Positions 5,447 to 6,181 of a DNA stretch of 11,013 nucleotides are shown here, piece after piece. Location: IMG/VR virus record IMGVR_UViG_2778261708_000011; one strand, 5' to 3'. The position numbers and the translations under genes are program-made. How positions within the stretch are numbered: the stretch's first letter is position 1; every line of letters begins with the position of its first letter. The stretch comes from a virus. Its lineage: Duplodnaviria > Heunggongvirae > Uroviricota > Caudoviricetes. A model generated the notes under the pieces. The model searched no databases. It saw only the letters and a program-made list of their open reading frames with translations, and was not told where the DNA came from.

Positions 5447-6181
5447 TCATTGCCCGGACTTCCGACAAATCCCGGCAACCATATCCCGGTGCTTGTTCAG
5501 CTCCCGCAGCGCGGCGCAGACTCGCTCCCACTTCTGGACATGATTCTTCGCCCTACGCAGTTCGCGATTTGCCATATGCAGCGATGGCAAAATCAAATCA
5601 TCTTCTCGCGTTGCAGTAAACGATGGCAGCGACTGCACAATGTCCGCCACAGTTTCTGTTTTAATATCTTCCTGTGTTGCATCTTTCTGTACCGGTAACG
5701 CAACACCGGCTGGCTGAGGAAAGGCTTTACCATCGGTTTCCGCTACCGATTCAACTTTCGGCTCTGCTGGTAAATTATCACCTGGTATGCAGTAACGAAT
5801 TTTACCGTTCTGGTTTACGCGAATCAGACGACCTTTGCTGATTGCCATTGCCAGCGTTGAAGCAACTTTGCGGGATGTTGTACCGAACAGCGTAGCCAGT
5901 TCATCCGCCGTTTGTGGTCCGCGTTGTTCAATCGTCGCGGTTAAATCGCACTCTGAGATTTTCGCTTCTGTTGCCGTGGTGGTTTCTTCTGGCGCTGGCT
6001 GTTCCTGCTGAACGTTGTTATCAGCCACACGCCAGGTGTATACGCTTTTATCAACGAAGCCAGCCTTTTTCAGTTCCCACAGCTCGTTCAGTACTTCTTC
6101 ACGACTGATATCAAGTCGCGCAGCCAGCTATACCGACGTGGCTTTTCCCATCGCTTTCAGTGCGTCAAAAACAGTCTCCAT
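5447..6181 (-). pseudogene. HTH-domain phage protein (possibly DUF1627-like) interrupted by an in-frame amber codon
   Basis: ATG at 6181 with GGGAGG 6 nt upstream. Reads METVFDALKAMGKATSV, then TAG at codon 18 (plus 6128-6130), then continues in the same frame [43 protein letters not shown]... to the stop at 5447, 244 codons in total. Confidence 0.6.

Follow-up and report, generated by a model that had tools for sequence, protein, structure and literature searches.

The window analysed here, i.e., the whole 11,013-nucleotide stretch of Caudoviricetes DNA, presents a lambdoid prophage context of the ompW type (PPompW), in which the early genes on the minus strand run in the order Cro-like, YdaT-like, O-like, lambda-type P, DUF1627, a 54-codon open reading frame (ORF), a fimbrial-like pseudogene, paa, and hokD/sok. 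RefSeq CDS coordinates of the product that starts after the TAG were taken from the E. coli O157 genomes PV15-279, 493/89, and OK1 and mapped onto the window by alignment. The features concerned are listed below, with energies referring to the Shine-Dalgarno (SD):anti-SD duplex.

8520-8927, plus strand (opposite to the early genes): DicA-like repressor of 135 aa, upstream of the early genes
6669-7709, minus strand: O-like replication initiator with a DnaT-like ssDNA-binding domain; an open frame, intact in the window
6215-6676, minus strand: replication protein P, a lambda-type helicase loader (from the RefSeq annotation of identical sequence), immediately upstream of the DUF1627 gene
6188-6193, minus strand: Shine-Dalgarno GGGAGG of the native ATG (6181-6179); duplex of -10.3 kcal/mol, the strongest among the in-frame start candidates
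6181, minus strand: native ATG start, served by that -10.3 kcal/mol duplex
5447-6181, minus strand: DUF1627/YdaW-family gene with E18amber; 244 codons when intact; Pfam DUF1627 match at E 7.8e-93
6131-6181, minus strand: the 17 codons still translated, covering helix 1 and the very start of helix 2 in the first winged-helix domain
6128-6130, minus strand: amber codon TAG, codon 18; the mutated base is window position 6130, plus-strand A versus C in O55:H7
6125-6127, minus strand: CTG directly after the TAG, the RefSeq/PGAP start of the 226-aa WP_077744273.1; weak SD, -3.0 kcal/mol
6026-6028, minus strand: GTG at codon 52, the first canonical in-frame start past the stop (ORF 5447-6028); without an SD, -0.9 kcal/mol
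5848, minus strand: ATG at codon 112; -0.1 kcal/mol
5286-5450, minus strand: 54-codon ORF (WP_001505071.1), whose ATG overlaps the DUF1627 stop (ATGA, 5450-5447)

Elsewhere on the minus strand, a hokD toxin ORF and a full-length Rfam sok match (103.9 bits, 3491-3640) make up a hok/sok-type module at 3338-3640, between paa and a nin-like region, and three tRNA genes lie downstream of Q at 323-572, i.e., Arg(tct), Arg(tcg), and a CAT-anticodon tRNA assigned to Met by ARAGORN and to Ile by RefSeq. These tRNAs and sok are the only Rfam RNA elements in the window; with none overlapping 5447-6181, we rejected an overlapping RNA element as the cause of conservation there. No promoter- or terminator-like site was found near the TAG. 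The gene name yciD is an older one for ompW. The Sakai prophage at yciD is Sp9 (PMC8190617), and prophages of the PPompW type are widespread in E. coli, with all those examined appearing defective (PMC8112680).

Taken as a whole, the window is a mosaic of bases 1-3240 and 3244-11013, with the junction at about 3191-3244. The first part (tRNAs, Q, RusA, DUF968) has 100% matches in 284 complete genomes, those with a named serotype being O157, and its match lies in another prophage, far from the TAG gene (0.75 Mb versus 5.31 Mb in SRCC 1675); the second part is PPompW-type. No complete genome was found to reproduce the 3191-3244 junction at an identity of at least 99%. The mosaic would reflect either inter-prophage recombination/inversion in the source strain, events of which have been described (PMC8112680), or an assembly chimera.

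The DUF1627 frame opens with the ATG at 6181-6179, runs for 17 codons (6181-6131) that translate to METVFDALKAMGKATSV, meets TAG at 6130-6128, and continues through 226 sense codons to a TGA at 5449-5447; on translation of 6181-5447, the TAG at codon 18 is the sole internal stop. The coordinates given for this arrangement in a preliminary description of the window are thus exact to the base. This frame is a real gene rather than a chance ORF, as its stop-masked product matches Pfam DUF1627 (PF07789) over residues 84-236 (308.8 bits against a cut-off of 28.1, E 7.8e-93); PHROG 630 is matched over residues 1-242 (E 2.5e-121), with weak matches to HTH/winged-helix families at residues 4-46. When compared base by base over 735 nt, the window differs from the O55:H7 CB9615 allele at one site, base 52 of the gene, where G has become T on the coding strand, bearing out the earlier view of a single nonsense lesion in an otherwise intact gene. 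The intact allele (WP_000450692.1, found in O55:H7, O145, and PPompW phages) is thus one base away, with codon 18 being GAG (Glu) in O145 RM9872, PPompW_14040, and O55:H7 CB9615, in which the 244-aa protein is annotated as intact. With the ancestral sense codon GAG one base from TAG and the frame unbroken in orthologues, the lesion reads as a Glu18-to-amber change via a G-to-T transversion (GAG to TAG). A CAG (Gln) ancestor converted by a single C-to-T change, as had been suggested, was rejected given the GAG of close orthologues and the GAA at codon 18 of Rac-type copies.

The portion of the protein that precedes and spans the stop is also the portion that the family has kept most faithfully. 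A full scan of 1.84 billion representative proteins returned 176 relatives, and 38 distant full-length relatives (20-66% identity) align with the window product from its first residue; at identities as low as about 25%, full-length relatives still pair residue 1 to residue 1. In the 39-sequence alignment, L8, K13, A20, L34, and W50 are near-invariant, and the best-conserved block of the family is the first winged helix, with the N-terminal pattern METV.DALKAMGKAT..EIAARL.... A set of 15 orthologues (E. coli, E. fergusonii, E. albertii, E. marmotae, and Salmonella) shows hardly any variation over residues 1-16 and none at E18; beyond the O157 clone, every orthologue has a sense codon at position 18, mostly Glu. 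Over codons 1-58, comparison with three Rac-type copies (K-12, AR_0006, and SMN152SH1) gave pS values of 0.20-0.28 and pN values of 0.008-0.023, an excess of pS over pN that points to purifying selection acting on this stretch as coding sequence. Since no part of the family is better conserved than the N-terminus encoded before the stop, where change has been mostly synonymous, translation does not naturally begin downstream of the TAG; the possibility raised previously, i.e., a downstream start with the upstream 17 codons unconserved, was thus rejected, these codons being highly conserved in close and distant orthologues alike. What the window encodes is the N-terminal winged-helix domain of full-length members, interrupted at codon 18, and this conservation, together with the sense codon in orthologues, favours the reading of a recent inactivating mutation of an HTH gene that had been among those first proposed.

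An AlphaFold2 model of the intact protein (mean pLDDT 81, with the domains at least 94) comprises a first winged helix at residues 1-52 (helices 4-11, 16-23, and 27-39, then hairpin strands over 43-52), a second at residues 77-131, and a disordered linker followed by a long C-terminal helix (201-243), via which the protein is possibly dimeric. Codon 18 falls within helix 2 of the first winged helix, at a pLDDT of at least 94, for which reason the 17-residue product is predicted to be incapable of any useful fold. Searches of the PDB with Foldseek gave ScpB as the best match (E 3e-4), the others being generic tandem winged-helix proteins with poor global superposition; with only matches of this generic kind, deduction of a function from the fold was rejected. 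One 296-aa family member (P0038) carries a 43-residue insertion (alignment columns 29-71) that is a divergent repeat of the first-winged-helix segment and looks like either an internal duplication or a recombinant join of two alleles.

The position of the gene is likewise conserved. In every E. coli locus read, the DUF1627 gene directly follows the P or YdaV helicase loader, and in seven distant viral contigs the gene upstream of the homologue encodes an IstB/DnaC-type loader (5/7), a lambda-P-type loader (1/7), or an HTH_36 protein (1/7). A record named Actinobacillus phage vB_Apl-pPE4 (PP818812.1) displays 86.6% DNA identity to the replication gene plus DUF1627 region, which is unexpected for the host named. 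Records of O157 contain up to 5-6 DUF1627-like places; in SRCC 1675 (O157), an intact 232-aa paralogue (L011, 13733-14431) is located in another prophage, one with a LexA-type repressor, after its own O/P genes.

To place the lesion among strains, exact 81-mers spanning codon 18 in TAG and GAG versions were searched in 5,426 complete E. coli genomes, with serotype read from record names; TAG-allele genomes bearing no serotype name were taken to be O157 on account of their size and context. The TAG version is present in 293 of these, O157:H7 wherever a serotype is named, including PV15-279 (atypical), OK1, Z903, and the sorbitol-fermenting 493/89; judging by record names and sources, these genomes come from differing laboratories, countries, and hosts. 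The GAG version is present in 295 genomes, among them O145:H28, O26:H11, O111, O103, O121, O55:H7, and others, with no O157 name in the 60 listed of those 295. The alleles thus split cleanly by lineage. An 861-nt region of the locus is 100% identical to E. coli O157:H7 chromosomes; it shows one mismatch (99.9% identity) when set against O145 or the "PPompW" prophages that were deposited alongside Stx2a phages of O145:H28. Because TAG is found in O157 (including 493/89) and GAG in O55:H7 and other serotypes, the mutation appears to have had a single origin, later than the split from O55:H7 but earlier than the divergence between 493/89 and typical O157:H7, with clonal inheritance since then.

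On these grounds, the feature is, with high confidence, a clade-fixed nonsense mutation that would have inactivated one DUF1627/YdaW copy in a defective ompW-type prophage of O157, most simply by neutral decay. Ribosomes would start at the strong ATG at 6181 and add only 17 residues, the stop falling within helix 2 of winged helix 1, and with no efficient site for restarting, little or no functional protein would be made. The GAG-to-TAG change would have arisen between the O55:H7 split and the divergence of 493/89 and been passed on clonally. Loss of the gene copy would be neutral, with the prophage already defective and intact paralogues present in other prophages of the same genome. Few substitutions separate the two lineages: over the 7.77-kb segment shared with O55:H7 CB9615, there are 8 substitutions and 2 single-base indels. 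As 4.0% of the single-base changes possible in the DUF1627 gene create a stop, one nonsense hit among so few branch substitutions is unremarkable under neutral drift. Given the defective prophage, the intact paralogues, and a nonsense hit of this unremarkable sort, neutral decay is the simplest account, and we infer neutrality on that basis. With one substitution only in the gene, any relaxed selection after the stop would leave no detectable trace; that the gene would be dead is thus a reading drawn from the restart analysis, as opposed to any observed decay.

Decay is also seen around the gene, with a fimbrial pseudogene adjoining it and O disrupted in some O157 strains, through either an IS or a frameshift. 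The fimbrial-protein-like pseudogene (about 4748-5281, minus strand; "frameshifted; internal stop") is shared by O157, O55:H7, and O145, and since its lesion is common to all three, it would be older than the TAG. The O-like gene (also at L001, 3542-4754, and L004, 4461-5500) is intact in OK1, whereas IS1203 interrupts it in PV15-279 and 493/89 has a frameshift in it; from these differing states, the replication module appears to have decayed independently in O157 sublineages. As for the 54-codon ORF, whose start overlaps the DUF1627 stop, its translational coupling has probably been lost in the TAG allele, and the early stop may possibly also exert Rho-type polarity.

Of the other explanations, the one that fares best, albeit still improbable, is that translation restarts at CTG 6127 or GTG 6028 to yield a functional, N-terminally shortened protein that would retain winged helix 2 as well as the C-terminal helix and whose activity may be altered or dominant-negative. 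A ribosome that has just terminated can re-initiate close by, the frame past the TAG is undamaged, and the whole of the Pfam DUF1627 domain proper (residues 84-236) is encoded after the stop; moreover, RefSeq/PGAP annotates exactly such a product in O157 genomes, i.e., the 226-aa "DUF1627 domain-containing protein" WP_077744273.1 starting from the CTG, with no pseudogene flag. However, CTG initiates very poorly in E. coli and the SD at 6127 is weak (-3.0 kcal/mol), whereas no canonical in-frame start occurs until 34 codons later, where the SD is in effect absent (-0.9 kcal/mol); by predicted SD:anti-SD energies, no canonical in-frame start with a Shine-Dalgarno was found after the TAG. Any shortened product would also have lost winged helix 1, the block that the family conserves most, either partly or, with a start at GTG 6028, entirely. 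Nor is the intact downstream frame informative, since only ~0.8 substitutions would be expected in 735 nt at such divergence. The RefSeq CTG start is thus probably a workaround of the annotation pipeline that keeps a homology-supported frame and not evidence of a real start; it hides the lesion in O157, for which a pseudogene flag would be better.

A selected, as opposed to neutral, loss of this DUF1627 copy in the O157 ancestor is a still weaker contender, which we consider distinctly unlikely. Were it so, the DUF1627 protein may interfere with a host defence system or with co-resident lambdoid prophages, Stx phages among them, in their replication or immunity; alternatively, the early stop may have polar effects on the adhesin region (paa/adfO) as well as on the small ORF. 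In that case, the SNP would represent one functional step in the O55:H7 to O157:H7 transition.

Less probable again, and in our estimation very improbable, is that the amber is read through, either by a suppressor tRNA of the host or prophage or by near-cognate read-through, to give a reduced and possibly regulated amount of full-length protein. Prophages of O157 do carry tRNA genes, three of them within the window; however, their anticodons (tct, tcg, and cat) belong to Arg, Arg, and Ile/Met tRNAs, with no UAG-reading tRNA in the window. In E. coli, termination is comparatively weak at a TAG with C as its next base, as is the case here, so trace read-through is possible. The check for suppressors covered the window tRNAs and supE44 glnV. 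Records with a 100% match to a supE44-type glnV number 155, which is fewer than the 293 genomes with TAG, and the 60 listed of those 155 are without exception K-12-type laboratory strains (4.5-4.8 Mb). No amber suppressor was thus found in the window tRNAs, nor a supE44 glnV outside K-12-type strains among the 60 records listed. The preliminary description had expected suppression in supE hosts; because the ancestral codon is GAG (Glu), though, a supE host would make an E18Q variant and not the wild-type protein. The TAG is absent at codon 18 from every orthologue beyond a single clonal lineage, on account of which a conserved site for programmed read-through or recoding was rejected; this same confinement, along with the Arg, Arg, and Ile/Met identities of the window tRNAs, runs counter to the gene being suppressor-dependent, another of the options first put forward.

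Three records labelled "K-12 MG1655" (NZ_CP010438-CP010440) possess a glnV that is 100% identical to the supE44 (CUA anticodon) query; this is unexpected for MG1655 and suggests mislabelled or derived strains.

Finally, there is next to no likelihood that the TAG arose as an error of sequencing or assembly, an option that had also been entertained. The assembly quality of a mosaic window with a 3191-3244 junction reproduced by no complete genome could be questioned, but such an error was rejected, as the identical TAG 81-mer is present in 293 independently assembled complete genomes and the allele segregates cleanly by lineage.

Inactivation of one prophage gene copy, the explanation we favour, is ordinary in kind, i.e., one more pseudogene in the well-documented pool of defective prophages in E. 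coli O157. Its by-products are an annotation correction, a lineage-marker SNP, and a clearer view of DUF1627 architecture and synteny. The G-to-T change at window position 6130 could serve to mark O157 (including 493/89) apart from O55:H7 and other serotypes, as judged by record names. In addition, O157 (TAG) and O55:H7 (intact) constitute a natural near-isogenic pair at this locus, usable for the study of DUF1627. The wider value lies in the DUF1627/YdaW family being a conserved tandem winged-helix protein fixed beside the replication module of many lambdoid prophages, for which we infer an accessory, DNA-binding role in the replication or early module of lambdoid phages. No function is assigned to PHROG 630, and the literature on ydaW yielded only a screen hit and a listing; overexpressed Rac ydaW was among the "blockers" of the retron-Sen2 toxin RcaT (bioRxiv preprint, 10.1101/2020.06.22.160242), and another paper places ydaW among predicted transcription factors whose function is unknown (PMC9308461).

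With respect to known systems, the predicted fold shares with ScpB-like tandem winged-helix proteins the presence of two consecutive winged-helix domains. However, sequence identity to these proteins is only 14-20%, with a large rmsd and a TM-score of about 0.2-0.3; no kleisin partner is encoded near the DUF1627 gene, whose product has a disordered linker and a long C-terminal helix in addition. The likeness is thus one of domain type only and is not evidence of a shared function.

As a single UAG in a lambdoid phage gene, the lesion resembles the suppressor-dependent laboratory ambers of lambda (Oam29, Pam80, and Sam7). Like them, it would be phenotypically suppressed in supE, supD, or supF hosts. 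Those mutations are laboratory-selected conditional lethals in essential genes, whereas the present allele is a natural one that is fixed in a wild clonal lineage; the DUF1627 gene, unlike its lambda counterparts, is apparently dispensable and resides in a host for which no suppressor was found (window tRNAs, supE44).

The closest relative is the PPompW orthologue WP_000450692.1 of O55:H7, O145:H28, O26, O111, and others, which has the same flanking genes (O, P, the small ORF, the fimbrial pseudogene, and paa) and is annotated as an intact 244-aa protein with GAG (Glu) at codon 18, where the window gene has TAG. More distant is YdaW of the K-12 Rac prophage, a member of the same family (PF07789, PHROG 630) that is likewise encoded directly after a helicase-loader gene, at about 89% DNA identity over the shared part, and that is also a pseudogene. 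The two differ in the manner of their inactivation and in their neighbours: K-12 ydaW follows the DnaC-type loader ydaV and has had its C-terminus truncated by a deletion, whereas the window gene follows a lambda P-type loader and is full length, with a point nonsense mutation at codon 18.
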